From Piedraia hortae CBS 480.64 (Eukaryota): 64,000 nt of DNA. Below, in pieces: positions 23,848 through 39,072 of this stretch. Made by a program: the position numbers and the translations under genes. The stretch is from the NCBI GenBank assembly GCA_010093745.1, contig MU005967.1, forward strand, positions 1 through 64,000, read 5' to 3'. Position 1 is the first letter of the stretch. Each line of letters begins with the position of its first letter. Under the pieces are notes generated by a model. That model was not told where the DNA came from. It did not search any database and saw only the letters and a list, made by a program, of their open reading frames with translations.

Positions 23848-24054
23848 TTATTGTTTTATGAGGCTTGAAAATTTATGGTCGCGTTCCGTCATTACCCTCC
23901 TCAACTCCGCTTTAGCTGCTTCGGATTTCGAATCCGCTGCTTCAGGGTCAGGGGGTATAAATTTGAATGATGCGAGGTGGGTGGTCAGCTTGTCGACTTT
24001 CTCGCGGGGCGAAGATACTTTTTCATGGTTCCTGAATCGAACCCCAGGGCGCAT
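23848..24054 (-). CDS. 68-aa ORF duplicating the HAUS1 C-terminus (functional status unknown)
   Basis: LASFKFIPPDPEAA..AKAELRRVMTERDHKFSSLIK aligns with HAUS1 LAAFEALPPDPGAA..AREELRRVTRERDRSFEGLIK. Confidence 0.5.
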   Translation of the reverse strand: MRPGVRFRNHEKVSSPREKVDKLTTHLASFKFIPPDPEAADSKSEAAKAELRRVMTERDHKFSSLIKQ

Positions 24055-24860
24055 TACTTAATGAGTCCCTCAAAACTCCGATCGCGCTCCCTCGTAACCC
24101 TCCTCAACTCCTCCCTCGCTTGTTCAATTCTCTCCCCCGCCGCCCCCGGATCAGGAGGCAAAGCTTCGAACGCGGCAAGTCTCTTCTCCAACCCCTCCAA
24201 CCTCTTGCGAAGCGCCTTTACCCTTTCCATCCTCTCCCAAACCTCACCAACCTCCCCCTCGGACCCATCCCTCTTCAGCACCGCCAAGCGGGAGTCATAC
24301 TCCCCCACCTTCGCCCGCACGACCTTTGTACTTTTCCCCCACTCTGTAGCCTTCTCATGCAGCTCGGCGTAGGAAGGGAAAGCATCTAGCCCCGATATTA
24401 TAGCTTCTAGGTTGGACTGTTCGGAGCGGAGGGCAGACTGTGTCGCTTCCGCCCTAGAAACCCTCCCCTCCAATTCAAAAACCTCATTCGTGAGGCGCAC
24501 ACAAGCCGGTGCTAACCCCTGGGGCTGAACCCCAAGGAGCACACTCGCTGCTGCTAGTTCATTAAGACCCTCCCTAGCATGGGGAGTTAAAGTTCCAAGG
24601 AGGGATGTGCAGAACTCACTACCCTTTGAAGCGGAGCGTAGAGTTGACATTTGCACGTTTTCAGTGAGATGTCTCAGCTCATCAGCTTTTTCGTTTAGGT
24701 TCGCGAGGGTTAGGAGTGCTTGGAGGGTTTCCTCTGTGCGTTCGAATACTGGGGGGGTGGCAGGGTGGTACTTTTTCGAGAGCCAGGTTGTGACGGACGC
24801 CCAGTCTTGAGCTTGGAGGTGCGCTGCGAGGGCTTTGGAGGGGGAAAATGATGTTTCCAT
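24054..24860 (-). CDS. HAUS1: Augmin/HAUS complex subunit 1-like protein
   Basis: FSPSKA..DWASVTTWLSKKY..PVFERTEETLQALLTLANLNEKAD, C-terminal F..LPPD motif. Confidence 0.75.
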   Translation of the reverse strand: METSFSPSKALAAHLQAQDWASVTTWLSKKYHPATPPVFERTEETLQALLTLANLNEKADELRHLTENVQMSTLRSASKGSEFCTSLLGTLTPHAREGLNELAAASVLLGVQPQGLAPACVRLTNEVFELEGRVSRAEATQSALRSEQSNLEAIISGLDAFPSYAELHEKATEWGKSTKVVRAKVGEYDSRLAVLKRDGSEGEVGEVWERMERVKALRKRLEGLEKRLAAFEALPPDPGAAGERIEQAREELRRVTRERDRSFEGLIK

Positions 24861-25064
24861 TGGGTGAGTTTTTGGGGTGAGGGTTTTGTTGGTAGCTTGG
24901 CTAGATGGGAAGGTGATGTTTTACCTTGAGTTAGCTAAGCTATTGGGTGGCTCAAACGCACAAAGGTCGCGTAGTTTTGATTGGTGGGTTCGGGCCGGTC
25001 CGCTGCTTGACATCAATTAACCAAGCTATCTCTCTGGCAAATAAACAGGAGTGGATAGTTGGGA

Positions 25065-27164
25065 ATGGCGATTAAGGCAGATCTCCAAGCTGCAAAGAGT
25101 GCGCTTGATGATTCAAAATATGAAGAGGCTGCCGCTGCCGCGCAGAGAGTCTTGACCGCCGACCCACAGAATTTCAACGGGCAGTTACTGTACGGGCGTG
25201 CGTGCGAGAAGCAGCGGGACTTCCAAGGTGCCGAAAGAGCTTACCGCGCCGCGGCCAAGGCTAAACCCCATGACCGCAACCCGTGGCTGGGGCTCTGTAG
25301 TGTTTACGAAGCCCTGGGGACGGATAAAATTGATGAATATCATGAAGCTACGCTAAAGGTAGCGGATATCCTGGCTGAAGCGGATGATAAACATCGCTGT
25401 CAGGTCGCTGTGGATAAGTTTGTGGCATTTGCGGAGCAGTTTGGCTCCAGAGAGCAGTATAGACATGCGCTGGGGATGCTGCTGCCGGACAGTTCGATCT
25501 ATGATTTTTTGCAGGGGAGGATACCGCATGCGTCTTCGACGTATATGAGGTTGGTGAAAATGATGGAGGAGGAGGAGGTGCAGAGGATTCGGAGGGAGAT
25601 CGCTGAGCGGAGGACACGGATAGGTGCTACGCTTAGCCAGGTTACGGTTGATGTGAAGAACGAGGTGCTTGGGAATAGTCCGTTGGAGGGATTGTATCAG
25701 AAAGTGATTGATTGGTCGCTTGATGATGGGGTGAGGAGGGAGTACGAGGAGAAGTTACTGCAGAGGGCGTATGATGTGCTTGCCGTTCTGCCCGTGAAGG
25801 AGAAGGCTGGCAAGCGGGAGCAAGTGTTGATGTTGGCGAGAGGAATGGTCATTATTCATCATGGATTCCGCCTCGCTTGGGACCTGGTCATTGAGTCAAA
25901 GGATCCGTATGATTTGCAAGAGTTTGATGTAAATGTCCTGCAGGAATACACCTCTCTTTTTCCGGATACAGGTCTCGCGAAGGTGTTGTCAGCATGGCTG
26001 AGCAGCGAGCGTTCGCCATTCCCGACATCGGACGAAGATGAGAATCCAATGAGTCTCGAGGTCCGGCTCGTACTGCTTGTTGAGGGCCTCTCCGAAGCAG
26101 GGCAGTCACCGCTCGCGCATCGCATCGTTTCCACATACTACCTACATATAGAAGAGTACGAAAGCGCAGCAGATACAGCCCGAACGGGCGTCAGATTAGC
26201 CACCGCAGAATCACACAAACTAGGCACATCCCTACAAAACACAAAAGACGCTCTAAATACCGTCCTCGCAACCGCACTTGTCCACCACCTCTCTCCCAAA
26301 TATCACACCGAAGCCCGCCAACTCTTCGAAGATATCCTGAAGCGGGACAACCGATCCTCACCCGCCCTCATGGGCCTAGGCCTCATCCTTGAAGAAACAG
26401 AAGACTACACGGACGCAATCACCTACTTCACGCGAGCCCTGGACCAAGACCCTGGGAACGAACGCATCGGAATCGAATTAGCCTGGTGTCGCGCCCTCTG
26501 TGGCGACTACCTCTCCGCCCGCGAAGAACTCGAAACCTACCTCTCCATCCTAGAACCCACAGACCGCGACCTCCGCGCCCTCGCCCTCTACCGCATCGGA
26601 ATCTGCATCTGGGAACTTGATCCCTCCAAACCAGCCCGCAAATCCCGCGACGGCGCATACAGCTATTTCCTCAATTCCATCCAAACGAACCGCAACTTTG
26701 CCCCCGCATACACCAGCCTAGGCTATTACTACGCCGACTACGCCAAAGACAAAAAGCGCGCTCCTCTCTGCTTCCAGAAAGCCTTTGAGCTCTCTTCCGC
26801 GGAAACAGATGCCGCGGAGCGATTAGCTAGGATTTTTGCGGATAAGGGTGAGTGGGATCTTGTAGAGGCTGTGGCACAGAGGGTTGTGGATTCTGGACGT
26901 GCGAGGCCTCCCCCTGGCTCGAAAAAGAAGGGGCTTAGTTGGCCGTTCTCTGCGCTGGGCGTTGTGCAGATGAATAGGCAGGAGTTTAGGGCTGCGATTC
27001 CGATGTTTCATACGGCATTGAGGATGAATCCGGGGGACTTCCATGCGTGTGTTGGCCTTGGGGAGAGTTATCATAATTGTGGGAGGTATGGGGCTGCGTT
27101 GAAGGCGTTGGGTTTTGCGTTGGAGGGCGTTGGGGGTGGGGGTGGGGGTGGGGAAATTTTGTGA
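25065..27164 (+). CDS. SKI3: Superkiller protein 3, N-terminal half (TPR repeats), 699 aa
   Basis: TPRs; EIAERRTRIGA, APAYTSLGYYYADY..CFQKAFEL, RPPPGSKKKGLSWPFSALG, GLGESYHNCGRY; ends GGGGGGGEIL then TGA TGA. Confidence 0.88.
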   Translation: MAIKADLQAAKSALDDSKYEEAAAAAQRVLTADPQNFNGQLLYGRACEKQRDFQGAERAYRAAAKAKPHDRNPWLGLCSVYEALGTDKIDEYHEATLKVADILAEADDKHRCQVAVDKFVAFAEQFGSREQYRHALGMLLPDSSIYDFLQGRIPHASSTYMRLVKMMEEEEVQRIRREIAERRTRIGATLSQVTVDVKNEVLGNSPLEGLYQKVIDWSLDDGVRREYEEKLLQRAYDVLAVLPVKEKAGKREQVLMLARGMVIIHHGFRLAWDLVIESKDPYDLQEFDVNVLQEYTSLFPDTGLAKVLSAWLSSERSPFPTSDEDENPMSLEVRLVLLVEGLSEAGQSPLAHRIVSTYYLHIEEYESAADTARTGVRLATAESHKLGTSLQNTKDALNTVLATALVHHLSPKYHTEARQLFEDILKRDNRSSPALMGLGLILEETEDYTDAITYFTRALDQDPGNERIGIELAWCRALCGDYLSAREELETYLSILEPTDRDLRALALYRIGICIWELDPSKPARKSRDGAYSYFLNSIQTNRNFAPAYTSLGYYYADYAKDKKRAPLCFQKAFELSSAETDAAERLARIFADKGEWDLVEAVAQRVVDSGRARPPPGSKKKGLSWPFSALGVVQMNRQEFRAAIPMFHTALRMNPGDFHACVGLGESYHNCGRYGAALKALGFALEGVGGGGGGGEIL
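27131..27153 (+). repeat. (GGGGGT)n tract, G-quadruplex-capable; complementary to 35047-35068
   Basis: tgggggtgggggtgggggtgggg seen directly. Confidence 0.85.
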
Positions 27165-27896
27165 TGAAGGTGAGGTCTGTGGGGTTGGGCGTTTTTTTTC
27201 TTGGAGTGGAGGGCTTTGCTGATATGCGAATGTTCTTTGAGAAAGGGAACTTTCGATAGGGTTAGAGATGTTTGGTGGTGGTGCAGGGGCAAAAGGGGAG
27301 CAGTGGAGCGCGAGGTTTTTTGCTATCTAGCAAGGGGTAAACTTGAACTCAAGTGGTTCATGTCCCGGAATCGAAAGCATTTCTGCAAGGTGTCGGCGGA
27401 ATTTCCCCCCAAACAGTGACATTCAATCAGAAGCAAACATTCTGCTATACGCGTCTACTCAGCAGACAACGACATACCTTTCCCATCGATCGACCATCTG
27501 TGTTGTTGAGAAGTATCAGTGCCATACCTCGGCCTGATAACAAAGACTATACCAAGAAAAATTCTGTATAGCAAAATGCTCAAAGAGCATAATAAAGAGG
27601 ACAGTGGGGCGATGGAGTGATATTTGGAAACTGTCTGAAGAAAGAAGCTACTTGTATATAAGCTCGCTGCTGAACATCAGAAAACATAACTTTGTTAAAA
27701 TTCAATCTTCAGAACGATTACGCTACGCAACAACTAACTTCCAACAATCTGTACACCATCGCACGTCCTCACGCATAGCAATCCCAGCTACGACGTCATC
27801 TCTTCATACAGTTACATGTACTTATTCATCCCCACCCTCATCCAGCTCCATATCCTTGCCCTCCTCCCGTCCCTCATCTCCATTCTCATCTCCACC

Positions 27897-28973
27897 CTAC
27901 TCTCCACTCTCCTGCTCATCCGACACATCTGACCCACTCAAATCGCTCACAAACTCTTCCGAAACTTTCTCATCTTCACCACCATCCTCATTATCGAGCC
28001 TAATCGGGAAATACACCCACCACCTCGTCTTCCCCCTTATCTCCCCTTGTCCCAGTTCCTCCCGATTCACCCACTCCGCCCTCGGCAGCCCCGTCGACTT
28101 GAAAACAGGTGGCTCCCAAACCGCCGGCTGAAGCTTCTTCAGCGTACCCTTCTTCACCCGCTCGAGCGTAGCAGACGAGTACTTGGTATGTTTTGGCCCC
28201 ACGAGCTCACCCAGCGGAATGCGCTCTTCGCGCGAAAGGATTTGACGTAGGGGCGCGTATTTGCCCCATGTGGGCTCCATGTTAGGACACCGGGAGAGGA
28301 CCTGTGGAGCTGGAGGTTCTAGTGGGCGAGCGACTGGGTCTCCGAGAACCGTCAGTGGGTCCGCAAAAATAATCGGTGGCTCTTCAGGCAGGGCAGGTGG
28401 ATCCTCGGGCTCGGCTTGCGGCATCTCAAACATCGCCTCTAGGTCTTCGGGACGAGCGGGCATTTCAGGGGAGAGGGCCGTGTCCTCGGCGGTTGTAGTC
28501 GTTGTCGTCTCCGCTGGCTGGACATCCACATTACCCCGAAGCTGAACACTCCGGTTCACATCTCGATCATCATTCCCCAGTGAATGAACCTGATTCGTAT
28601 TTTCCGCCGAGCGAAATGCATCCTCCCAATCCCAATCCAACTCCGGAATTTCGTGCCCTTCTTGCAGATCACTCACGAGTTGTTCATTATGGAACTCGTA
28701 CCCTCGTCCGAGCTGGAAGGTGTGGTCGGTGTCCGGGATGATATTGTCGGGATGGTACCCCAATCGGGTGAGTTCCCTGAGGTCTTGTTCGAATTTCTTG
28801 GTGATGACGGGGGCCATGTCGTCGCTAAAGGTATGTTCGATTTGAAGAGGGTCCCTGGTGACGTTCTCTTGGTTGTTATCACAGAACATGAGGCGCTGGA
28901 TTATGTCGAGGACATAACGCGCAGTTTCCATTTGCGTGGGATCTTGGTTGGAGTGGTTGGTTGGTTGGGGCAT
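27897..28973 (-). CDS. Orphan protein, paralog A (acidic tail)
   Basis: Long ORF; start set at MPQPTN by alignment with paralog B; shared RIPLGELVGP domain. Confidence 0.7.
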   Translation of the reverse strand: MPQPTNHSNQDPTQMETARYVLDIIQRLMFCDNNQENVTRDPLQIEHTFSDDMAPVITKKFEQDLRELTRLGYHPDNIIPDTDHTFQLGRGYEFHNEQLVSDLQEGHEIPELDWDWEDAFRSAENTNQVHSLGNDDRDVNRSVQLRGNVDVQPAETTTTTTAEDTALSPEMPARPEDLEAMFEMPQAEPEDPPALPEEPPIIFADPLTVLGDPVARPLEPPAPQVLSRCPNMEPTWGKYAPLRQILSREERIPLGELVGPKHTKYSSATLERVKKGTLKKLQPAVWEPPVFKSTGLPRAEWVNREELGQGEIRGKTRWWVYFPIRLDNEDGGEDEKVSEEFVSDLSGSDVSDEQESGE

Positions 28974-29413
28974 TTTGTGTGGAAAATTGTGTGTGGAGGG
29001 TTTGTGTTTGTTGAGGTTGGGAGGGAGAATGAGGGAGGGGGGGTGAGGCATGGCAAAGTAAAGTTGGGATGGAGTTTTCTTGGGAGAGATTCTTGAGTTA
29101 TGGAAGTTTACTTGGGGGAAGTTGACTTTGGGTGAAGAAATTTCATTCATCTTGTTTACGGGATCTGTGTTGGATGCAGGGCCCTGGTGGCAACTGATAG
29201 TTGTGAATACAAGGCGAGTGTGTGCCCCTTTAGCCTGCGCTCACCGTAGCCGTATATGTGTATAAGCAGTATTTCTTTCGTCGTGGGTATGATATTACGG
29301 TATTTGAAATGGGACTGTCGATGGAGAGTTACAAGATGTCCATGGACCATATGATAACAGTTCAAGAACCGCATAGAATAAGGCTCTTACCGACACCACT
29401 CCACATCCCACAA

Positions 29414-30409
29414 TCACTCCTGGACCCCCTCCTCCAGCTCTTCCTCCTCCGTTTCATCAGTCTCACTCGTATCCACATCCTCCCCCTCCTTGTCAACATA
29501 ATCCTCATCCTCCCCTTCCAATTCCACTTCACTCGCAAAATGAAACCTCCACCACTCATCATTCTCCGGCTTTTGGTCCTTCGGTCCCATTCCATACGTC
29601 TCCGGTCTCGGAACAGTCAGAACCGCCGATCCCCAAACCGCCGGACCCAGCTTCATCATCGACTCTCTTTGCACACGCAAAAGTGTCTCAGACGAATAGT
29701 TGGAATAAGACGGTCCCACCAGCTCGCCCAGGGGGATTCTCTTCTGCCGTGGGAGAATGGAGCGTAGATGTGCGTATGCGCCCCAATAGGGCTCTACATT
29801 GGACAGCAGAGTTGCATCGGTAGAAGCATCGGTGGAAAGGGTGGAGGTGGTTGGGGTGTTCGGAGGGATGTTTTCCGGCGGAGCCTGGGGAGTACTGGGA
29901 GGTGCGGCAGCGGTGGTATCCGCAGTACTCTCGGGCTGCACATCCGGCCTTACATCCTGTGCGGTTTCGGCAGCTGCGGTGGGAACACCCTCGGCACTCC
30001 CACGCTGCACGTCCGGCCCGATGCCCAGTGTGGTTCCTGTACCCTGGAAAGTTATCTGAAAGTCTTGATGAAACTCGGGATCAATGTAAGCCTGGAAAAG
30101 ACAACGGACGAAATCCGCATTTGCGATTTCCCGACCGCCGTACAGCTGGAAGGTTGCATCTTGGCCCGGACGGAAAGAGTTTGGATAGAAGCCCATCACT
30201 AGGTGGCGAGGAAGAGTTGCCTCAAGATCCAGAGAGACAATCTCCTCCAGGTCCGCTGTGGATTCCCCTAGCGCCAAGCTTACGGGGTTGGGAGGAACGT
30301 TCTCCTGATCGTCATCATCGAGTGCGTCCCGCTGGAAGAGTTCAAGCACATAGCGAGAGGGTTCCATTTGGGTCGGGTGTTGGGGGTTGGGGTTGTTTGG
30401 TTGTGGCAT
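29414..30409 (-). CDS. Orphan protein, paralog B, 331 aa
   Basis: MPQPNN..PTQME..RYVL..QENV and EP.WG.YA.LR.IL....RIPLGELVGP shared with paralog A. Confidence 0.72.
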   Translation of the reverse strand: MPQPNNPNPQHPTQMEPSRYVLELFQRDALDDDDQENVPPNPVSLALGESTADLEEIVSLDLEATLPRHLVMGFYPNSFRPGQDATFQLYGGREIANADFVRCLFQAYIDPEFHQDFQITFQGTGTTLGIGPDVQRGSAEGVPTAAAETAQDVRPDVQPESTADTTAAAPPSTPQAPPENIPPNTPTTSTLSTDASTDATLLSNVEPYWGAYAHLRSILPRQKRIPLGELVGPSYSNYSSETLLRVQRESMMKLGPAVWGSAVLTVPRPETYGMGPKDQKPENDEWWRFHFASEVELEGEDEDYVDKEGEDVDTSETDETEEEELEEGVQE

Positions 30410-30876
30410 GGTTTCTGTCTCTCTGTCTGATGTGGAGTTTGCGTGGGAATGGGTTTATTGTTGAGAGGGAAGGAGAATTGAGAAAATGGAGAGCATGTCA
30501 GGGTGCAGTTGGCATCATTTTCTCGTGAGAGAGATTTCAGGTCGGGGTTCTTCACCCGGGGGGTCACACTGGGTGAAGTAATTTTATCTCACGATTTCAT
30601 GGTCTGGGTTTATGTTGACTACAGGGGGGAACAACTAAAGGCGTTTGCGGAACTGTGTTGGCGAGAATTTGTGGAGCGATTTGTTGGGGGGATTTTCGTC
30701 TGGGGAGATAGGGGTTGGCCTTGGCGGGATGTGGGGCTGGATGCACGCTATAAGGTTATGACTTCTCTTGCGCTCACCTTTCGCTTACCTCGTCAGCAAG
30801 TATACCAAACATCTAATGAACTGAAACTCAATACCTGTTTAATATATCATCACGTCAAACTACCAACGCCTACAGA

Positions 30877-31641
30877 CTAGTCCACATCAGGCCCATTCCC
30901 AGCTTCTTCATTCTCCTTTGCCCGTTGCAAAATCCTATCCAGACGCGCCTGATTGAGTTCTCGCTGCGACCACGGTGGAGCTCTCTCCTGCTCGCCTACG
31001 GTGCTTACTGCTGGCGGGGCAGGCTGCGGGGCGGCCTGTTCTTGCGGAGCAGGGCGAGGTTCTTGAGTCGGACCAGCCTCTTGCGGCTTGGGACGGTGAG
31101 CTAGAGGCTTAGACTCTGCCGGAGGCGCTGGACGATCCTCTTGCTCTATTGGACGAGTAGCTTGAGGGGCCGAACGGCCCTTCTCTTGAGCCTTAGGACG
31201 AGACTCTTCGGCTGTCCATTGACTTTCCTGTGGAGGAGGGTGGTTGGGAACCACCGGTCTCGCTGGTCTCTCGAGCCTAGCCTGACGTTCTTTGATCCTG
31301 CTCATACCCTGAGAAGTAGACTGAGCTTCTGTCGTTCGAGCACCCTGAAGAATCCTATCTAGACGAGCTTGGGCCCTTTCTCCATGCGTTGGCGAAGACG
31401 GGTTCTCATCCCTGACTCTATCCATTGCCTCTAAAATTCTTTGCCCTGGGCGGGAAGTCTCCGGAGGGAGGCGTTTGAATGCAATAGGCCTGATCGGCCT
31501 CCTCTCCATCCTCTCCTGAGCAACCTCAATCCGGCTTGGGGGAGCATCTTGATCATTGTTCATCGTGGGCCTATGAGATGATGACCCTTCTCGTTGCTTA
31601 TGCGGAGAAGACTTCTCTTTATGTTTGCAAGACGCCGCCAC
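30877..31641 (-). CDS. Orphan low-complexity protein with repeated QARLDRILQ motif
   Basis: 254-codon ORF with internal motif repeats (QARLDRILQ x2, RQARLER). Confidence 0.55.
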   Translation of the reverse strand: MAASCKHKEKSSPHKQREGSSSHRPTMNNDQDAPPSRIEVAQERMERRPIRPIAFKRLPPETSRPGQRILEAMDRVRDENPSSPTHGERAQARLDRILQGARTTEAQSTSQGMSRIKERQARLERPARPVVPNHPPPQESQWTAEESRPKAQEKGRSAPQATRPIEQEDRPAPPAESKPLAHRPKPQEAGPTQEPRPAPQEQAAPQPAPPAVSTVGEQERAPPWSQRELNQARLDRILQRAKENEEAGNGPDVD

Positions 31642-32753
31642 CGTGGGTGTTGGTTTGAAGATGTTGACCTTAGCTCTACCTCAGGTGGCAGTTCCCGCGG
31701 CACAATCCCCCGTTCCCTCCTCAACCTCGCAATATCGCTGGCAGATACGTCTTGACTGGCATCTCGTACAGATGACTGCTACCTCGCTGCCCAGCGCGTG
31801 TGAGTCGCCGTCACAACCCTGTCAATACGGTCATTCATCTCACGAGACAGAGTGGGGTCGCCAATGTGTTGGCTGTTGAGGCTTCCGTGCATCTCGCCTG
31901 CGGCACAGCGAAGGCGGGATTCAGCCAGGCATTGCGCATATGTAGGTGTAAGGCCACCATTTACTGTTAGTTCGCGGCCACTCTGCTGCGAGGACCAGCT
32001 TTTGATTTCTGCCGATTTGCCCATTCTTCCCTACTGTTTGGTTTCTGATTTGAGGTTTGTGGGCCCATTTAGGCTGGTTTATACGGGTATATGAGTGCGG
32101 GAACATGAACACAGTGCATATTGGAAGTTTCGAATGAATCCTACTTTTTGTGTCCGACAAGGGATACAGCGGGACAGTCTTAGGTGAATACAGACGTCGA
32201 CCAGCAGGTCGGTGCCACCTTTCCATGCAACTGTCACTGTCAAGAGGCTCAAAATGTATCGGGCATCAATAAAGCAATTCAGTGAGGGATATCTTAATGC
32301 TCACTCTTAGTTGACCTCCTCACATCACAAATCGTTGCTAATATCTTGTTCTGGATGTAAGAAAATCATGAGAGCAAATCAACATATAAAGACGGAAATA
32401 TGCAGACGGGAGAAGCAAACATTCGCAAGTCTTCTTTTGTTCTATCCATCAAGACGAAGCACGTGAATTTTCATGTACAAACCGCTGGAGGGATCCTCGG
32501 CATGTACCCGGGAATGCCTGTCCGAAGAACAGACTAGCCACAATGACCACAGAACTGGGTGAAAGAAGGCGCAGAAAGATGTGAATAGATCTTTGTCCTC
32601 ATTCAAAGCAGCCTGCCAGATTAGGATATACCTGCCATATAGATCACAATAGAAGCGAAACTCCTCTTTAACGCCAAGTGAAGACTAATCTTCTCCAGAC
32701 ATTTTATACACATGTACAGAAAAAACCACCACCTATCAACAGTCTCATCGAAC

Positions 32754-33482
32754 TTAGTCAACATCCAAACTCAAATCTTCCGAATTCTCCGCTTCTGGCC
32801 GTGCTCTTATGAGAGCCGGGTCCCTCGGCCTGTGTCCTCCCGACGCATACCAAGCATCCTCGCCTCCTGAAGTTCGCGGCGGAACTGATGCTGACCGTCC
32901 ACTTCTTCGAGATGACGACAGTGGTGGGAATCCTGTCGGTGGTCGCATAGACGGAGGTGTTTGTGATCCACCAAATCCCGACTGTGAGCCCAAGCCCCTT
33001 GAAGCGTCAACTCCACGAGGCATGCCCGGGCGAATGTTCTGTATAAGTTGGTTCGTCATGGACCCGCCAATTCCTCCAGCACCAGCACTTCTATAGATAC
33101 TTTCTCCAAAATTTCCACCAGAACCTCTTCCAAGACCGTAACCTGGAATCCAGAATAGAGAGTGACCCAATTGTCGCAGCGTCCTAACAGTCCAGTCCAG
33201 CTCCTCAGCAAATACCTTGCGAACGGATGGGTCAAATGCAGGAAACCGAGCGGCCTCTTGGACTTTCGGCAAGTAAAAAGTCAGCACATCCTCGTGGAGG
33301 CCATCCATCCAAGTGCGACTCCTGAGGGTTTCTGAGCCAAGGTGGAAAGGTGAGTGGGGATGAAGCTTGTTATACTGTCTGATAGCGTGTCGGCGGGCTC
33401 GAACTACTTGTTTGGGAATTTCATGCGGACAGTCGCTCCGGGGAACCCATGTGTTGTATATCTCGTGTTGACTTCGTGACAT
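32754..33482 (-). CDS. Orphan protein, 242 aa (globular-looking N-half, Gly/Ser/Pro/Arg tail)
   Basis: ATG-initiated ORF with protein-like composition; no family recognised. Confidence 0.55.
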   Translation of the reverse strand: MSRSQHEIYNTWVPRSDCPHEIPKQVVRARRHAIRQYNKLHPHSPFHLGSETLRSRTWMDGLHEDVLTFYLPKVQEAARFPAFDPSVRKVFAEELDWTVRTLRQLGHSLFWIPGYGLGRGSGGNFGESIYRSAGAGGIGGSMTNQLIQNIRPGMPRGVDASRGLGSQSGFGGSQTPPSMRPPTGFPPLSSSRRSGRSASVPPRTSGGEDAWYASGGHRPRDPALIRARPEAENSEDLSLDVD

Positions 33483-35046
33483 CTTGCTTACACGCGGTGT
33501 TCTATAATTTTCAGGATCAGGATTTGGAGTCTAATAAAAGGTGGGGGGGAGGGGGATGGTGAAGCAGCAGCAGTGTGAGGAAGGGCAAGGTGGGTGAATG
33601 GCACAAGCGTGTTCACTGTTCCGAGCTTGTGATGTGTGTAAATTGATTTGAGCATTCGTGCATGATCTTCGTGACATGACTACATCCCACCAGCTCTCTC
33701 GATTAGGTGCATATGTCGATCAGCATGCTTGAGTGTAGCCGTGTAAGGCTCAATGCATGGCAGAAGACCTTGTACTCTCGTGGAAGAAGTATTAGAAAAT
33801 CATCAATAAACAAGGACCGTTTGTGCTTGTGTTCACCGCCATGAAACACTCTGTCAAAAACTGCTGATGTATGGTGTTCTTTGAAGCAAGAGGATGCTTG
33901 GCACGCCTCGACATGATATTCCGTGCTTCATAATCCATCTGGTGATCCGTGGTACCATCACCACCTGGGATATAGAGACTTACACTGGGGGATTGGCTAT
34001 AGATTCGAGAAACCGTACGTCGGAATTGCCAATTCTTACATATGGGCAATCAGCTACTTGGGAATTGAACAAGCCATGGAAATTTCATAGCTGTTGCATT
34101 GTACCACCCAGCAAGCCCGGTTAGAACGTGACCTTGCAGTTCAGTCGCAAAAGTCATATTTAGTGGTCAAATGCCAGATGTACCAGCGAAAGACATCCAG
34201 ATGTCATCACCGCAAGTCATCAATCTCACGAAGACCGCTTTACTTCTAGTTTGAGAAAGGCGACCTTCCCACTTGGGACATGATTGTGCTCCGCAGCGGG
34301 GTAAGCTAGCGGAATTACGTGCGCCAAGCCCAATGCATGCGACGGCACATTTCGCTTAAAAGGGCGGAAGCAACTTTAGGAGGCCAAGGGCTTCCATCTT
34401 TGTCGATAAGGCCTCGAGGAAGCGGTTCCCAACATATGAGGGGCAAGATTTGGAGGCGGATGGGCCGCCGCGGCAAGGGACCGCAGAATCGGGAGCTTAC
34501 CAAGATCTTCCCCCGATCGTGACGGCCATGGTCGACCGCGATGGTGCAGCTCTGGCCGCCTCTGCCAAGTCCAAGCCTGTTGCTGAAGATCTGAAACATC
34601 TGCTGTCACATTCTGCCCGTTCTTCTCTCACGTTTGATTCTCTGGCGCCATCTTCCAACCGCGATCAGTGTGACCTTACCTCATCTGACATCGAGTTTGA
34701 GGCAAATACCGAGACTTTAGAGAACTTGAAAGAAAGGGCCAGTCTAAGTCACGAACTTTTCGACGAGGTTGTACGGCCGATGATGGACTGTTTCGTCATG
34801 GAGAATGGGTACTGCCATAGGGATCCACATAGCACACAACCTGATCCATTCTCAACATGTTATGCAGCTATGTAACTCACACACCTGTATGCGTAGTCTG
34901 CGCAGAGCTAGCGATTCATTGTAGTATCACTTCCCAATCAATCCCAATACCGACCGACATCTGCCTTAAACAGTTCTCCAAGAACACAGAACAACCGAGA
35001 ACTTTGCCAAGATGACGGGACATTACAGGCGCAGTGGGGCAGCAAA

Positions 35047-35073
35047 CCCACCCCCACCCCCACCCCCACCCCA
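35047..35073 (+). repeat. (ACCCCC)n tract just upstream of the SKI3 C-half
   Basis: cccacccccacccccacccccacccca seen directly. Confidence 0.85.
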
Positions 35074-35102
35074 CCACATCAATCGCAAACAACCAACCAA
35101 CA

Positions 35103-37064
35103 ATGTCACACCCTAAACCCGAAACCTGGCCAGCGCAATACCTCCTCTCAAACGTCCACCGTGAACTTGGCTCCTATACCGAGTCCATAACCCTCCTCCG
35201 CAAAATCCTCGCAACCAACCCCCGAGAGGTCATAATCCTCCTAAGCCTTCAACAGACCTACAATGAACAAGCCTTATCCAACCTGCGATCGGGTCTCTAC
35301 GGCGCAGCCGCCCTCAGCGCCCATGAAGCAATCAAAACCGCGGGAATCCTCATCTCAGCGCACGCCGACGCAAAAAACCTCTGGAAGAACCTAGGCGACT
35401 CGTGTCTCATCTACACTTTAACAGACAAACTCCCCTTCCCCGCGGAGGAAGTAGCTTCCATCCTCGGGGCCGAAGGCTCTCACTCAGACTCCACCTCAAA
35501 CTCTCCCTCCGCCTCAGCCGAAGGCTCCTCAAGCGACCCCACCCCCTTCCTCGCCGCGCAGCGTGCCTACACGCGCGTCCTCTCCCTGAACAGCAATGAC
35601 ATCCACGCTCAAAGCGTAGCATACTACAACCTAGGCTACATCTCCTACCTAACCTCCACCACCCAAACCACCAAGTCCTCGCTCAAAACCTCAATCCGCA
35701 ACTTCAAAAGCGCGATCGAGCTCGAAGCCGGCAACTCCGAATTCTGGAACGGGCTCGGCGTGGCAGCCATGAAAATAAACCCCCGCGTCGCACAACACGC
35801 GTTCGTGCGGTCCTTGCACCTCAACGAGCTGAACGCACGGGTTTGGACGAATTTGGGTGTGTTGTATCTCCTGCAAAAAGACGAGGAGTTAGCACATCGC
35901 GCATTCGGGAGGGCACAGTCTACTGATCCCACGTATGCGAGTGCGTGGGTGGGTGAGGGGGTGCTAAAGGGAGATAAGGGATTGGCGTCATTCACGCACG
36001 CGTTTGAAATTGCGGACGCGGGGGATAGGGCGGTGAAGAAGGTTTATCCCGCGGCGTTTTTCGATCAGAGTGGAGGCGCGTCGCGTGACCTGGCGGGTCT
36101 GATTCAGCCGCTGTTTGCGTTAGAGCAGCTCCGCGCACAGAGCGGGGGACAGAAGTACGAGCACCTTTCTGCGTTGTTTAGGGAGAGGGTAGGGGATTAT
36201 GATTCCGCAATTGAGAGTTTGATGAAGCTTAGTGAGGCTGCGGAGATGGAGTATGAGGTTGAAGAGAGTAAGGAGGCGTTGGAGCATTATGCGCAGGCGA
36301 AGGCGGATCTGGCGAGGTGTGCGCTTGCGTGTGGGAGGTTCGAGGAGGCGAGAGACAATGCGACTGCGGCATTGGACTTGGAGGTTGGAGGCGAGAGATT
36401 GCGCCTTTCGGCGCATTTGACGGCTGGGCTTGCGGCGGACGGGTTGGGAATGATGGGGGAGGCGGTTGCGATGTTTAAGAAGGCGCTTACGGAGAGTGAG
36501 GGCGCGGCGGATGTGTTTTGTTTGCTGGGGAAGGTGCTTTGGGCGAAGGGGGGTACGGAGGAGAGGGATGTGGCGAGGGAACAGGTCGTGGGGTGTATAG
36601 AGCGGAATCCGGATCATGTGGGTTGTGTTGTTCTGTTGGGTGCCATGGCCGCGTTGGATGATGATGTGGAAGGGTTGGAGGCGGTAAAGGAGGATCTCCT
36701 GCGGTTGAGGATGAGGGAGGGATTAGAGGCTGCTGATGCAGCGGATATTGATCGATTGTTACTCGCTCTGGCGGGTTTGGAGTCGAATGGGAATGAACTG
36801 GCGCAGGCGCAGGAAGCGGTTGCCCTTCATCCCGAGGAGCCAAATGCTTGGGCTGAACTGGCGGCTCTTTCTGACGACGCGACTGTAGCCAAGACGGCCC
36901 TGAGGGCTGCACAAAAGGCTGTTCCGCCCTTTGGCAGTCTAGATGCTGCCGCTTTGGCGAAGGCTGCGGCAGAGGTGGGAGATGGAAGATCAGTGCAAGA
37001 GGCTGTTGTGCTTGCACCGTGGGAGGCAGTGGGATGGAAGAGATTAATAGAATTGGCTACATGA
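35103..37064 (+). CDS. SKI3: Superkiller protein 3, C-terminal half (TPR repeats), 653 aa
   Basis: ETWPAQYLLSNVHRELG, FKSAIELEAGNSEFWNGLG, VAQHAFVRSLHLNE, RAQSTDPTYASAWVGEG, ends AVVLAPWEAVGW; ATG in acaATG context; frame open back to 35016. Confidence 0.88.
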   Translation: MSHPKPETWPAQYLLSNVHRELGSYTESITLLRKILATNPREVIILLSLQQTYNEQALSNLRSGLYGAAALSAHEAIKTAGILISAHADAKNLWKNLGDSCLIYTLTDKLPFPAEEVASILGAEGSHSDSTSNSPSASAEGSSSDPTPFLAAQRAYTRVLSLNSNDIHAQSVAYYNLGYISYLTSTTQTTKSSLKTSIRNFKSAIELEAGNSEFWNGLGVAAMKINPRVAQHAFVRSLHLNELNARVWTNLGVLYLLQKDEELAHRAFGRAQSTDPTYASAWVGEGVLKGDKGLASFTHAFEIADAGDRAVKKVYPAAFFDQSGGASRDLAGLIQPLFALEQLRAQSGGQKYEHLSALFRERVGDYDSAIESLMKLSEAAEMEYEVEESKEALEHYAQAKADLARCALACGRFEEARDNATAALDLEVGGERLRLSAHLTAGLAADGLGMMGEAVAMFKKALTESEGAADVFCLLGKVLWAKGGTEERDVAREQVVGCIERNPDHVGCVVLLGAMAALDDDVEGLEAVKEDLLRLRMREGLEAADAADIDRLLLALAGLESNGNELAQAQEAVALHPEEPNAWAELAALSDDATVAKTALRAAQKAVPPFGSLDAAALAKAAAEVGDGRSVQEAVVLAPWEAVGWKRLIELAT

Positions 37065-37118
37065 GGTGAGCGTTTATACATTAACTTACACACTAATCGT
37101 ACAACGGTAGACACCGGT

Positions 37119-38037
37119 TTACTCGACGAACGACTGCAGCCGCTTCAGCCAGTCCACGTATTCCTTTTGCTCATGCTCGATGACATGGTCTGGAATGAAC
37201 ATGGAGAGGTTGGTGTTGATGCCGCGAGCTTCGAGGTATTTGTGGAACAGCGACTGGACCTCCTCGTCCAAATGAGGGAACAGCGGTCCAGTATACACTC
37301 CGTCCGTGTCTTTACGAAGCAGCTCGACGGCCGAGGTTGAATGCATTTCCTTACTGTCTGGCAGATGCACGACATGGTTGATGTGGAAAAAGCTGTCGGT
37401 GGTATCCATGTACAGCTTCAGAGCGCCCTGTGGAGAGTCAGCGATGATCCTTCAACGGGAGCGGCATACTGACCTTGTTCCTCTTACGAATCAGAACGCG
37501 GACTTCGGCCGGGATAGGCACATCCCAGTCCTCCTCCTCCAACGTCTCAGCCTTTGAATCCGATTCCTCGTAGCGCTGATCCATGCGGTCTTCAGGCACA
37601 ACCTTGAACTTGTCTGACGTTCCACTGTTGATTTCGTCGCTGTCTAGCTCATCGTCACTCATCTCGTCTTCCATCTCTTCATCCGGCCCAAGGCTATTGT
37701 CCGCCTCAGAGACGTTGAACATGACGGTGATGTCCTCATCTTCGTATTTGCGCTCCATGATCACCTCCCCCGTGCCTGTCGTGTCGGAGATCTTCCATCC
37801 TGGGTTCTTTTCCAGGAAAGACTTGACATCGAGGTTATTCGTCTTAGACATCTCGTTTGACTCCAACTGAGCCTCCTGCGAAAGTTTGGCCGCCAATTGT
37901 TGAGAGGCGGAGTCGAAGCGGGAGTGCGAGAGCGAGAATGCTTGAACACGCTGCGTAGGGAATCGGCGGAACGGCGTTCTGCAGGCAAATCGGGTAGTAC
38001 CCCGAGGGATAGCACGGTATACAGTTCGTGTGAGCAT
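37119..38037 (-). CDS. MAM33: Mitochondrial acidic matrix glycoprotein (MAM33/C1QBP)
   Basis: Arg-rich presequence, acidic loop, intron 37428-37473, YTGPLF..LDEEVQ..YLEARGIN..EQKEYVDWL. Confidence 0.9.
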
Positions 38038-38187
38038 GATGTTAATGAAAGCCGGTGATGTTAAGCTGAAAGTTCAAAGCGGAACAACGTCTGCGGAAAA
38101 AAAAAAAACGGTGCGGTAGCGGACGGGTCGGGTCGGACCGTAGCTTGAACCACTGCTAGCGCGCCTTCAACCTCAGATGTTCAGACC

Positions 38188-39072
38188 ATGGCCGAGTCGC
38201 AAAGCTCCAAACCCTCACCGCTTCGATCAATTATCGCCGGAAGTACGGCAGGTGCTGTTGAAATTGCCATCACATACCCAGCGGAATTTGCAAAGACCCG
38301 TATACAATTAAATCAGCGACTGGGACCAGGTCAGAAGTTGCCATGGCCTCCCTTTGGACGACAGTGGTACGCGGGATGCACAACCCTGATAGTTGGAAAC
38401 AGCATAAAAGCCGGCGTTCGCTTCGTGGCCTTTGACCAATACAAGCAAATGCTGTCAAATAGTGACGGCACGATATCAGGGCCCATGACAGTCGTAAGCG
38501 GCTTCCTAGCCGGAGCTACCGAGAGTTTGCTAGCTGTGACGCCGTTCGAGAGCATAAAGACTCAGCTCATTGATGACCAGAAGCGGACACAGCCGCGGAT
38601 GCGAGGCTTCATCCACGGCAGCGGGGTCATATTTCGCGATGAGGGCATAAAGGGCTTTTTCAAAGGCTTTGTGCCTACCACTGCTAGACAGGCAGCGAAC
38701 AGTGCGGTACGGTTTAGTGCTTATACTTCGCTACGTCAGGCAGCACAGTCGTACGTTGCACCCGGCGAGAAGCTGAATTCGGCAGCGACGTTTGCCATAG
38801 GAGGAATGGCGGGGATTGCCACGGTTTACTCAACACAACCAATCGATACGGTCAAGACGAGGATGCAGAGCCTGGATTCAAAGGGTCAGTACAAGAACAG
38901 CATCGACTGTGCAATTAAAATAGTCCAGAACGAGGGTTTCTTCAAGCTCTGGAGTGGTGCATTACCTCGGCTAGGCCGGTTGGTCTTGAGTGGTGGCATT
39001 GTGTTTACCATGTACGAACAGACCATGGACCTGATGAATAGGGTAGATCCTCAGCGGAGGTATATCCCTTGA
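38188..39072 (+). CDS. CTP1: Mitochondrial citrate/tricarboxylate carrier
   Basis: Three carrier repeats (YPAEFAKTR, TPFESIKTQ, QPIDTVKTRMQ), GNSIKAGVRF, RQAANSAVRF. Confidence 0.92.
   Translation: MAESQSSKPSPLRSIIAGSTAGAVEIAITYPAEFAKTRIQLNQRLGPGQKLPWPPFGRQWYAGCTTLIVGNSIKAGVRFVAFDQYKQMLSNSDGTISGPMTVVSGFLAGATESLLAVTPFESIKTQLIDDQKRTQPRMRGFIHGSGVIFRDEGIKGFFKGFVPTTARQAANSAVRFSAYTSLRQAAQSYVAPGEKLNSAATFAIGGMAGIATVYSTQPIDTVKTRMQSLDSKGQYKNSIDCAIKIVQNEGFFKLWSGALPRLGRLVLSGGIVFTMYEQTMDLMNRVDPQRRYIP

Follow-up and report, generated by a model that had tools for sequence, protein, structure and literature searches.

A SKI3 gene in two pieces in Piedraia hortae: probable fission of a single-exon gene by lineage-specific DNA

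Can the tetratricopeptide repeat (TPR) scaffold of the Ski2-Ski3-Ski8 complex be encoded in two pieces? The question is raised by a stretch of 64,000 nucleotides from Piedraia hortae CBS 480.64 (GenBank assembly GCA_010093745.1, contig MU005967.1, positions 1 to 64,000 of the forward strand; hereafter the window), in which SKI3 is represented by two separate open reading frames (ORFs). Ski3 of Saccharomyces cerevisiae and its human counterpart SKIC3 (TTC37) are single-chain TPR scaffolds of this complex (PDB 4BUJ, 5MC6, 7QDR and 9G8O), and Ski3 is one long TPR protein in yeast, in human and in every fungal relative examined here. Our analysis suggests that the window holds a real gene fission, in which a single-exon SKI3 located between HAUS1 and MAM33 was interrupted by ~7.9 kb of lineage-specific DNA; we put the probability of this reading at about 0.6.

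Two open reading frames that together make up Ski3

The first frame (N-half) lies on the plus strand at 25065-27164 and encodes 699 residues, roughly the N-terminal arm of Ski3 plus the first TPRs of its C-terminal arm; the second (C-half), also on the plus strand, lies at 35103-37064 and encodes 653 residues, the remainder of the C-terminal arm. Both frames are stop-free, stand in the ancestral order and add up to 1352 residues, and the 7938 nucleotides between them (27165-35102) are single-copy by contig depth except for a long terminal repeat (LTR). An earlier sequence-only reading of this DNA had described two intact plus-strand ORFs in the correct order, ~7.9 kb apart, and its coordinates are reproduced exactly. 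Against yeast Ski3, the N-half matches residues 4-762 (E-value 3e-77) and the C-half residues 770-1426 (E-value 4.6e-38); against human SKIC3 (9g8o_B), residues 505-683 of the N-half align with residues 458-626, and residues 5-289 of the C-half with residues 632-909. The closest proteins in a search of 5.8 billion are single-chain Ski3 of ~1385-1430 residues from Dothideomycetes (Salinomyces, Elasticomyces, Zasmidium, Fulvia, Baudoinia and other genera), with a best identity of 62-63%.

On nine full-length Dothideomycete Ski3 proteins (1385-1426 residues), the N-half spans residue 1 to ~688-704 and the C-half begins at ~701-711, at identities of 58-62% and 46-50%, respectively; for the Ski3 protein P0012 the N-half end and the C-half start fall at 735 and 741 because of a 31-residue N-terminal extension. 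Alignment to orthologues, which had been proposed as a check, shows that the halves cover consecutive parts of Ski3 and jointly span it from residue 1 to the end. Multiple TPR families of Pfam match in both halves, including PF18833 (TPR_22) at residues 141-228. Instead of a single chain of ~1400 residues, the window thus encodes two ORFs of 699 and 653 residues, and a search of the 64-kb window with a full-length relative found no third piece of SKI3.

According to the alignment, the break falls within a loop of 11 residues that links two TPR repeats, and the cut itself removes no conserved residue. The loop of the relatives reads ...RYNSALRTFNYALE-PHDGVSMKVAG-ETWFARYMLANVHRELG... (ALE-PHDGVSMKVAG-ETW); the N side of the break in the window reads ...RYGAALKALGFALEGV followed by GGGGGGGEIL and a stop codon (ALEGV + GGGGGGGEIL), and the C side reads MSHPKP followed by ETWPAQYLLSNVHRELG (MSHPKP + ETW). 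The N-half ends in ...GESYHNCGRYGAALKALGFALEGVGGGGGGGEIL and its stop codon, the final 13 residues, GVGGGGGGGEIL, being new, and the C-half opens with MSHPKPETWPAQYLLSNVHRELG. The frame of the C-half is open from 35016, as had been claimed, and contains no in-frame ATG upstream of 35103. The ATG at that position lies six residues ahead of the conserved ETW, and many relatives have a loop Met five residues ahead of its E; judged from this alignment, the start codon of the C-half may be the ancestral loop Met codon. By the TPR consensus, the N-half presumably ends just past the B helix of one repeat and the C-half opens at the A helix of the next. The yeast and human alignments put the break at residues ~762-770 and ~626-632, respectively. 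From residue numbers quoted in excerpts of PMC10659929 and PMC8860381, we estimate that it lies approximately between TPR 17 and TPR 18, inside the C-terminal arm and near the end of its first turn.

The ancestral locus and the search for a joint between the halves

Were the two parts once a single gene at this place? We retrieved 80 metagenome loci via an alignment of 14 full-length Ski3 proteins and compared the window proteins with them by tblastn (E-value cut-off 1e-5). Both SKI3 parts are present in 78 of the 80 loci, the other two (L052 and L073) beginning inside the C part, and the distance from the end of the N part to the start of the C part is 4-55 nucleotides in all 78. The adjacency of the two segments in homologues, stated in the sequence-only reading, holds in 78 of 78 loci, and none of these contains an intron or an insert at the break site. 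Upstream of the N-half stands the ancestral neighbour of SKI3, a HAUS1-like gene (24054-24860, minus strand; Pfam PF25762, E-value 5.2e-18), and in at least 8 of the 80 loci an intact SKI3 is immediately preceded by a HAUS1 relative on the other strand; downstream of the C-half stands the other ancestral neighbour, a MAM33-like gene (first exon at 37438-38037, minus strand; Pfam PF02330, E-value 1.5e-12), with a relative directly downstream of an intact SKI3 in at least 4 of the 80. Both counts are lower bounds, given the fast evolution of these proteins, the cut-off applied and the short flanks of many loci.

One locus, L048, has the order HAUS1(-), SKI3(+), MAM33(-), the same as around the two halves of the window. 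A mitochondrial-carrier gene is found downstream of MAM33 in the window (38188-39072), and in L048 a relative that is 83% identical to it is placed upstream of HAUS1 (1357-2226); this shift is a local rearrangement between lineages around a conserved HAUS1-SKI3-MAM33 core.

Because the relatives are contiguous and the ancestral neighbours still flank both halves, an insertion into SKI3 is indicated: two ORFs hold consecutive, non-overlapping parts of one ancestral gene, and they do so at the ancestral locus. The intervening DNA has no relative in the 80 SKI3 loci at the protein or the DNA level, its six ORFs giving no match in any of them. Another split Ski3 was not found among the 8 near-length matches, the best 150 representatives, the closest proteins or the 80 loci; the shorter proteins among the near-length matches and the best 150 representatives look like fragments. 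The only N-half-sized protein that covers at least 90% of the N-half, P0008 (671 residues, 44-45% identity), comes from a contig of 3,597 nucleotides, too short to distinguish a split gene from a cut-off one.

Two public sequencing runs of the same organism, from different studies, were compared with positions 24000-38500: X1, a DNA run, and X2, an RNA-like run. We infer that X2 is RNA because one of its contigs omits 37427-37472, a segment of 46 nucleotides with CT..AC ends that corresponds to a minus-strand GT..AG intron of the MAM33-like gene. The statements made here on contigs refer to those listed: 24000-25665, 25663-27120 (+12 letters), 27160-27529, 27888-31353 and 31336-38500 for X1; and 24000-24864, 25055-27120 (+22 letters), 27937-28977, 29407-29938, 30864-31387 and 32730-37426 + 37473-38048 for X2. 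Transcript ends, strand and level cannot be read from contigs, which can also miss rare forms; gaps in their cover (among the listed X2 pieces none lies on 24865-25054, and X2 depth is 0 at 31744-32227) carry no evidential weight, and depths were not used to rank the expression of the halves. X1 depth is ~11-13 across the halves, the insert and the flanks alike. RNA-like contigs lie over each half and are free of any joint between them, within the limits that contigs set for rare forms and that the reading of X2 as RNA sets for transcription.

Could the halves nonetheless be joined in RNA? One gene with a 7.9-kb intron, or trans-splicing, would give a single Ski3 of ~1380 residues, and the sequence-only reading had offered, as one of two options, a giant intron hosting nested genes. 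Phase-compatible GGTGGGG strings as donors, (T)ACAG and GCAG strings as acceptors and a frame open from 35016 speak for such a gene, and the quoted GGTGGGG and TACAG/GCAG strings do occur in the window. Moreover, the edges of the insert could pair if both lie in RNA, with a predicted duplex energy of -86.4 kcal/mol compared to a mean of -65.3 kcal/mol (standard deviation 5.2, best -82.5) for shuffled sequences. The proposed donors, however, are repeat units of the plus-strand (TGGGGG)n microsatellite at 27131-27153, which encodes the terminal Gly run of the N-half and has an inverse copy, (CCCCCA)n, at the other edge of the insert (35047-35072). No joint from ~2713x to ~3503x is reported in X1 or X2, with 0 joints dropped at masked repeats, and the RNA junction from ~27135-27150 to ~35029-35043 that had been suggested as a check is accordingly not among the contigs of either run; the X2 contig runs unbroken from 32730 through the acceptor sites at 35028 and 35034 into the C-half. 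An intron at this site is seen in 0 of 78 relatives, the only intron confirmed here measures 46 nucleotides, and opposite-strand ORFs that appear to be transcribed lie between the halves. Contigs can miss rare forms, for example a minor trans-spliced species; a giant intron is not supported, and we regard any continuous Ski3 message as highly improbable.

The left junction, the start of the C-half and the state of both frames

Several points weigh against a fission that left a working two-chain Ski3. The left junction (27133-27159) is bridged by no listed contig and is supported by the window assembly and by synteny: the X1 pieces stop at ~27132 and resume at 27160, and the X2 piece stops at ~27142. 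A high-copy LTR lies between this unbridged edge and the rest of the insert, and the true distance between the halves could differ from 7.9 kb. On the right side, upstream ATGs (at 35011 and in orfE, a frame of the insert described below) precede the ATG of the C-half if its mRNA starts far upstream. Translation of the halves and their binding to each other are events that we infer, and what bears on a second, intact SKI3 is the search of the 64-kb window, the lack of a joined form at 90% likeness or above in X1 and X2, and the single-copy depth of X1. The remaining points, which concern the rate of change of the C-half, the loss of invariant residues, the place of the break in the protein and the age of the event, are given with the alignment below.

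The left edge bears directly on the possibility of an assembly artefact, that is, of a misjoin via the microsatellite or the high-copy LTR, or of a misplaced insert. Positions 27133-27159 are supported by the window's own assembly alone, and a ~60-fold LTR of 246 bp (27501-27746) separates the N-half from the unique part of the insert. The right junction (35047-35102), in contrast, is spanned by an X1 contig of 21,674 nucleotides (31336-38500) and by an X2 contig of 5,297 nucleotides (32730-37426), so that two runs, each from its own study, have unbroken contigs in which DNA other than SKI3 precedes the C-half. Because both contigs run unbroken into the C-half, SKI3 is broken whatever the left edge may be. 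The halves keep the ancestral order and orientation between ancestral neighbours, which a random misjoin would not give; the same rare microsatellite stands at both edges; substitutions cluster at the break; and neither run has a contig in which the halves meet directly at a likeness of at least 90%. An artefact thus retains little probability in our estimate.

We aligned the two halves, as separate rows, with 23 named relatives. The identity of the window to these relatives is 55-63% for the N-half and 43-52% for the C-half, compared to the relatives' own medians of 68% and 62%. Trees were built with FastTree (LG+gamma) and rooted on Aplosporella and Bathelium, and 21 relatives were compared: the N-half has a root-to-tip distance of 0.786, at the top of the relatives' range (median 0.624, maximum 0.794), and the C-half one of 1.469, ~1.8 times the relatives' median of 0.809 and above their maximum of 0.982. 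Columns that are invariant in the 23 relatives are kept by the window at 144 of 165 positions in the N-half and at 113 of 129 in the C-half (87% each); these fractions (0.873 and 0.876) are lower than the jackknife minima of the relatives (0.927 and 0.949), and the excess loss, on sequence comparison, fits relaxed constraint or a partial loss of function. The break adjoins the most conserved repeats of the family, in which the relatives are 0.88-0.93 identical to the consensus. As the nearest relatives are ~62% (N-half) and ~50% (C-half) identical, the fission is undatable and the ratio of nonsynonymous to synonymous substitution rates (dN/dS) is not computable at such distances; what bears on purifying selection is the retention of 87% of invariant columns in each half, together with the acceleration of the C-half.

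The lost invariant residues are unevenly distributed: 11 of 30 are lost within 60 residues of the break in the N-half vs. 10 of 135 elsewhere (Fisher p = 1.3e-4), and 7 of 20 in the C-half vs. 9 of 109 elsewhere (Fisher p = 3.6e-3). Such clustering argues against an assembly artefact and against a very recent break. We read the pattern as that of a long-standing break after which new termini and an altered interface would have evolved and the constraint on the C-half would have relaxed.

The same figures could be read differently: the split would be real, and the function of Ski3 would be lost or on the way to being lost, the two ORFs being decaying remnants, or one half would remain functional, for example the C-half as a scaffold resembling Ski3 without its N-terminal arm (Ski3-deltaN). 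The root-to-tip distance of the C-half at 1.8 times the median, beyond every relative, invariant losses in both halves that exceed those of any relative and a peak of divergence in the most conserved repeats, beside the break, would all be expected of decay, and Ski3 minus its N-terminal arm still forms an active complex in vitro according to excerpts of PMC10659929, so that the N-half could be dispensable. Frames of 2.1 kb and 1.96 kb have, on the other hand, stayed free of stop codons and align with orthologues end to end; each half retains 87% of the invariant residues; the N-half is not faster than the fastest relative; RNA-like contigs cover both halves; and the extra change is concentrated near the break instead of being evenly spread, which fits the adaptation of new termini. 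We consider loss of function unlikely, while granting it appreciable weight. A true fission, the other option of the sequence-only reading, is favored by the seamless break between TPRs, the retention of the flanking genes, the RNA-like cover of the halves and the concentration of change at the break.

A possible two-piece scaffold and the origin of the insert

How might a Ski3 cut in this way work? According to excerpts of PMC10659929, the N-terminal part of yeast Ski3 (Ski3N, residues up to 701) is an autoinhibitory arm that touches the Ski2 arch, its removal raises RNA-dependent activities and leaves a complex that is still active in vitro, and the C-terminal part (Ski3C) forms a gatekeeping module with the N-terminal region of Ski2 (Ski2N) and two Ski8, with Ski7 on TPRs 20-29. 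The human C-terminal arm is described in excerpts of PMC8860381 as a four-turn solenoid of TPRs 9-40, inside which Ski2N extends from nearly one end to the other; at TPRs 17-19 there is a conserved hairpin. The yeast and human equivalent of the C-half binds the N-terminal region of Ski2, two Ski8 and Ski7 (excerpts of PMC10659929 and PMC8860381). Because the break lies inside the C-terminal arm that Ski2N threads, a two-chain Ski3 could be stapled by Ski2N.

The course of events that we propose begins with an ancestral single-exon SKI3 that would have sat between HAUS1 and MAM33. Lineage-specific, single-copy DNA of ~7.9 kb would have entered the loop between two TPR repeats, and it is the left edge of this insert that supplied the N-half with its stop codon and its short Gly-rich tail. 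The halves would be translated separately and would re-form a two-chain Ski3 solenoid, stapled by the N-terminal region of Ski2; the C-half would bear the Ski8 and exosome-adaptor surfaces and the N-half the autoinhibitory arm. The repeats beside the break would have diverged since, and the constraint on the C-half would have relaxed. That a two-chain Ski3 functions in this organism is therefore a proposal read from the sequences of its parts.

Complex prediction of N-half residues 430-699 with C-half residues 1-330 gave a score of 0.34 (best of 3 controls, 0.02), and at least 94% of contacts are shared between the runs, with a predicted local distance difference test (pLDDT) value of the partner of at least 77. 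Of 78 solved complexes, 51 reach the mark applied to such predictions, as do 2 of 108 mismatched pairs; in the score range up to 0.60, in which our value falls, the mark is reached by 5 of the 78 solved complexes and by all 4 passing mismatches (of 180). The prediction thus gives weak support to binding between the halves, and its pass may reflect likeness to solved Ski3 structures.

The halves resemble Ski3 and SKIC3 in that they jointly align with the whole yeast length and carry the same TPR families, and the genomic neighbours are those of Dothideomycete SKI3 loci; they differ from Ski3 and SKIC3 in being two ORFs 7.9 kb apart rather than one of ~1390-1430 residues, and in the unusual divergence of the repeats adjacent to the break and of the whole C-half. 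Engineered Ski3-deltaN complexes reportedly go back to original work by Halbach et al. in 2013. Judged from excerpts of PMC10659929, the window resembles these complexes in that the N-terminal arm is separate from the part that forms the gatekeeping module, an unattached arm being tolerable, and differs from them in that the break lies ~60 residues past the end of Ski3N (701), inside the C-terminal arm. The N part of the window, unlike that of Ski3-deltaN, is still encoded and lies under RNA-like contigs.

Gene fission is known in fungal genomes (excerpts of PMC2557144); the window likewise has two ORFs that cover consecutive parts of one ancestral gene, and here the cause can be seen, an insert of 7.9 kb with an inverted G-rich microsatellite at its edges. 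A search that paired "Ski3" with "gene fission" found no paper. The event is one of a known kind in a single lineage, and its general importance is moderate. A natural and apparently tolerated cut probes how much covalent continuity the SKI scaffold needs, and it asks whether the N-terminal thread of Ski2 is enough to hold the solenoid and whether the autoinhibitory arm is active in trans. The locus also offers an unusually clean view of the origin of a fission: the neighbours are intact, no coding sequence was lost, the new stop and start codons are identifiable, and the edges of the insert are odd.

These edges consist of the two microsatellite arms, which are exact reverse complements of each other (22- and 21-nucleotide matches, 100% complementary). 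A 15-mer of the repeat has five matches in the window, all at the two break points (0.01 expected), and the (TGGGGG)n repeat has 0 occurrences in 1.09 Mb of related fungal loci. The left arm has G-quadruplex form on the plus strand, and the right arm, which X1 and X2 contigs bridge, has it on the minus strand; beyond these two, one per strand, the 64-kb window contains no canonical G-quadruplex motif (G>=4, loops 1-3), and the G-rich strand reads 5' to 3' from each SKI3 half into the insert. Contigs of both runs stop in the left tract yet pass through the right one, a longer or variable left tract being one possibility.

Weaker similarity appears to run outward from the arms into SKI3. By blastn the inverted match extends over 27107-27153 vs. 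35052-35097 (81% over 48 nucleotides), taking in the last codons of the N-half and, on the other side, the leader as far as six bases short of the C-half ATG. In an anchored test of 25 nucleotides, 27 of 5000 shuffles reached the outward similarity, and 0 of 5000 random 25-mers of the window did so; local alignment of the 41-nucleotide outer flanks is not significant (1589 of 5000 shuffles), and the inner flanks of the arms show no similarity (4018 of 5000 shuffles). We treat the outward extension of the inverted repeat as a weak lead.

What brought the insert here? We tried and rejected a DNA transposon with terminal inverted repeats: the insert has no target-site duplication and no transposase, and it is single-copy (X1 depth ~12, as in the flanks). 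Its inverted repeat is perfect over 22-26 nucleotides, but it is pure microsatellite with the weaker outward similarity described above, and the sequences beside the arms differ (GGGCGT on the left, ACCACA on the right). The head-to-head arrangement of tracts of G-quadruplex form at the edges suggests breakage and repair at such a tract, not ordinary transposition. One or two inversions were worked through by hand as the cause of the split, and they cannot give halves in direct orientation together with an inverted arm beside the C-half. Inversion with staggered breaks leaves short inverted copies of the breakpoint sequence at both ends of the rearranged segment. Applied to an insert already in place, such an inversion could, on this analysis, create the inverted copies. 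Inverted duplications that arise from staggered breaks at inversion breakpoints are described in excerpts of PMC1885836; the likeness to the window lies in the short inverted copies at the segment ends, the right one of which may include ~25 nucleotides resembling the last codons of the N-half, and the difference lies in the shared orientation of the SKI3 halves, which a single inversion cannot keep, so that an inversion could only have flipped the insert later.

A more speculative combination joins the two-chain scaffold with end repair at a G-quadruplex tract and with pairing of the tracts in mRNA; we hold it to be doubtful. A G-quadruplex tract may have served to cap or repair both broken ends before they captured 7.9 kb of foreign DNA. 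The two chains, an autoinhibitory N arm with the first turn of the solenoid and a C arm that binds Ski2 and Ski8, may be held solely by TPR stacking and by the N-terminal thread of Ski2, in which case the cell could regulate the dose of the inhibitory arm separately from that of the scaffold. The (UGGGGG)n and (CCCCCA)n tracts could pair the 3' end of the N-half mRNA with the leader of the C-half if both are transcribed, and two messages brought together in this way would be placed for co-translational assembly.

Within the insert, we read the segment 27501-27746 (246 bp) as a solo LTR from an abundant family of retrotransposons: its TG...CA termini are flanked on each side by the 5-bp direct repeat ATCTG, its X1 depth is 762 compared to ~12 elsewhere (~60-fold), contigs fray into many contexts at 27499-27501 and 27746-27747, and its flanks are diverse in both runs, with no second copy in the 64-kb window. 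A joint of ~8 kb from 27747 to 35742, seen in one X1 contig with its 22-letter side inside the LTR, was treated as a repeat artefact, and it is the only such joint reported.

The other contents of the insert are orphan frames. On the minus strand lie orfA (27897-29150, 417 residues; X2 contig over 27937-28977), orfB (29414-30409, 331 residues; X2 contig over 29407-29938), the low-complexity orfC (30877-31563, 228 residues; X2 contig over 30864-31387) and orfD (32754-33482, 242 residues; within X2 contig 32730-37426). No Pfam domain was found in the insert ORFs even at an E-value of 10, apart from two chance-level matches, and the insert has no Rfam match at an E-value of 0.1 or less and no tRNA. 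For orfA, no homologue with an E-value of 0.001 or less was found among proteins of 229-730 residues in the search of 5.8 billion; assignment of orfB to DUF2420 was considered and dropped, the atlas lead of 0.79 being below the meaningful level and Pfam not confirming it. These two frames are tandem paralogues (35% identity, E-value 4e-43); their N- and C-terminal blocks are conserved, and their acidic/Pro-rich middle varies. On the plus strand, orfE (34528-34875, 115 residues) lies upstream of the C-half within the same X2 contig, and it may represent a gene of its own or an upstream ORF carried by the transcript of the C-half. Closer to the C-half, a short upstream ORF (35011-35112) starts at the out-of-frame ATG at 35011 and overlaps the start codon of the C-half.

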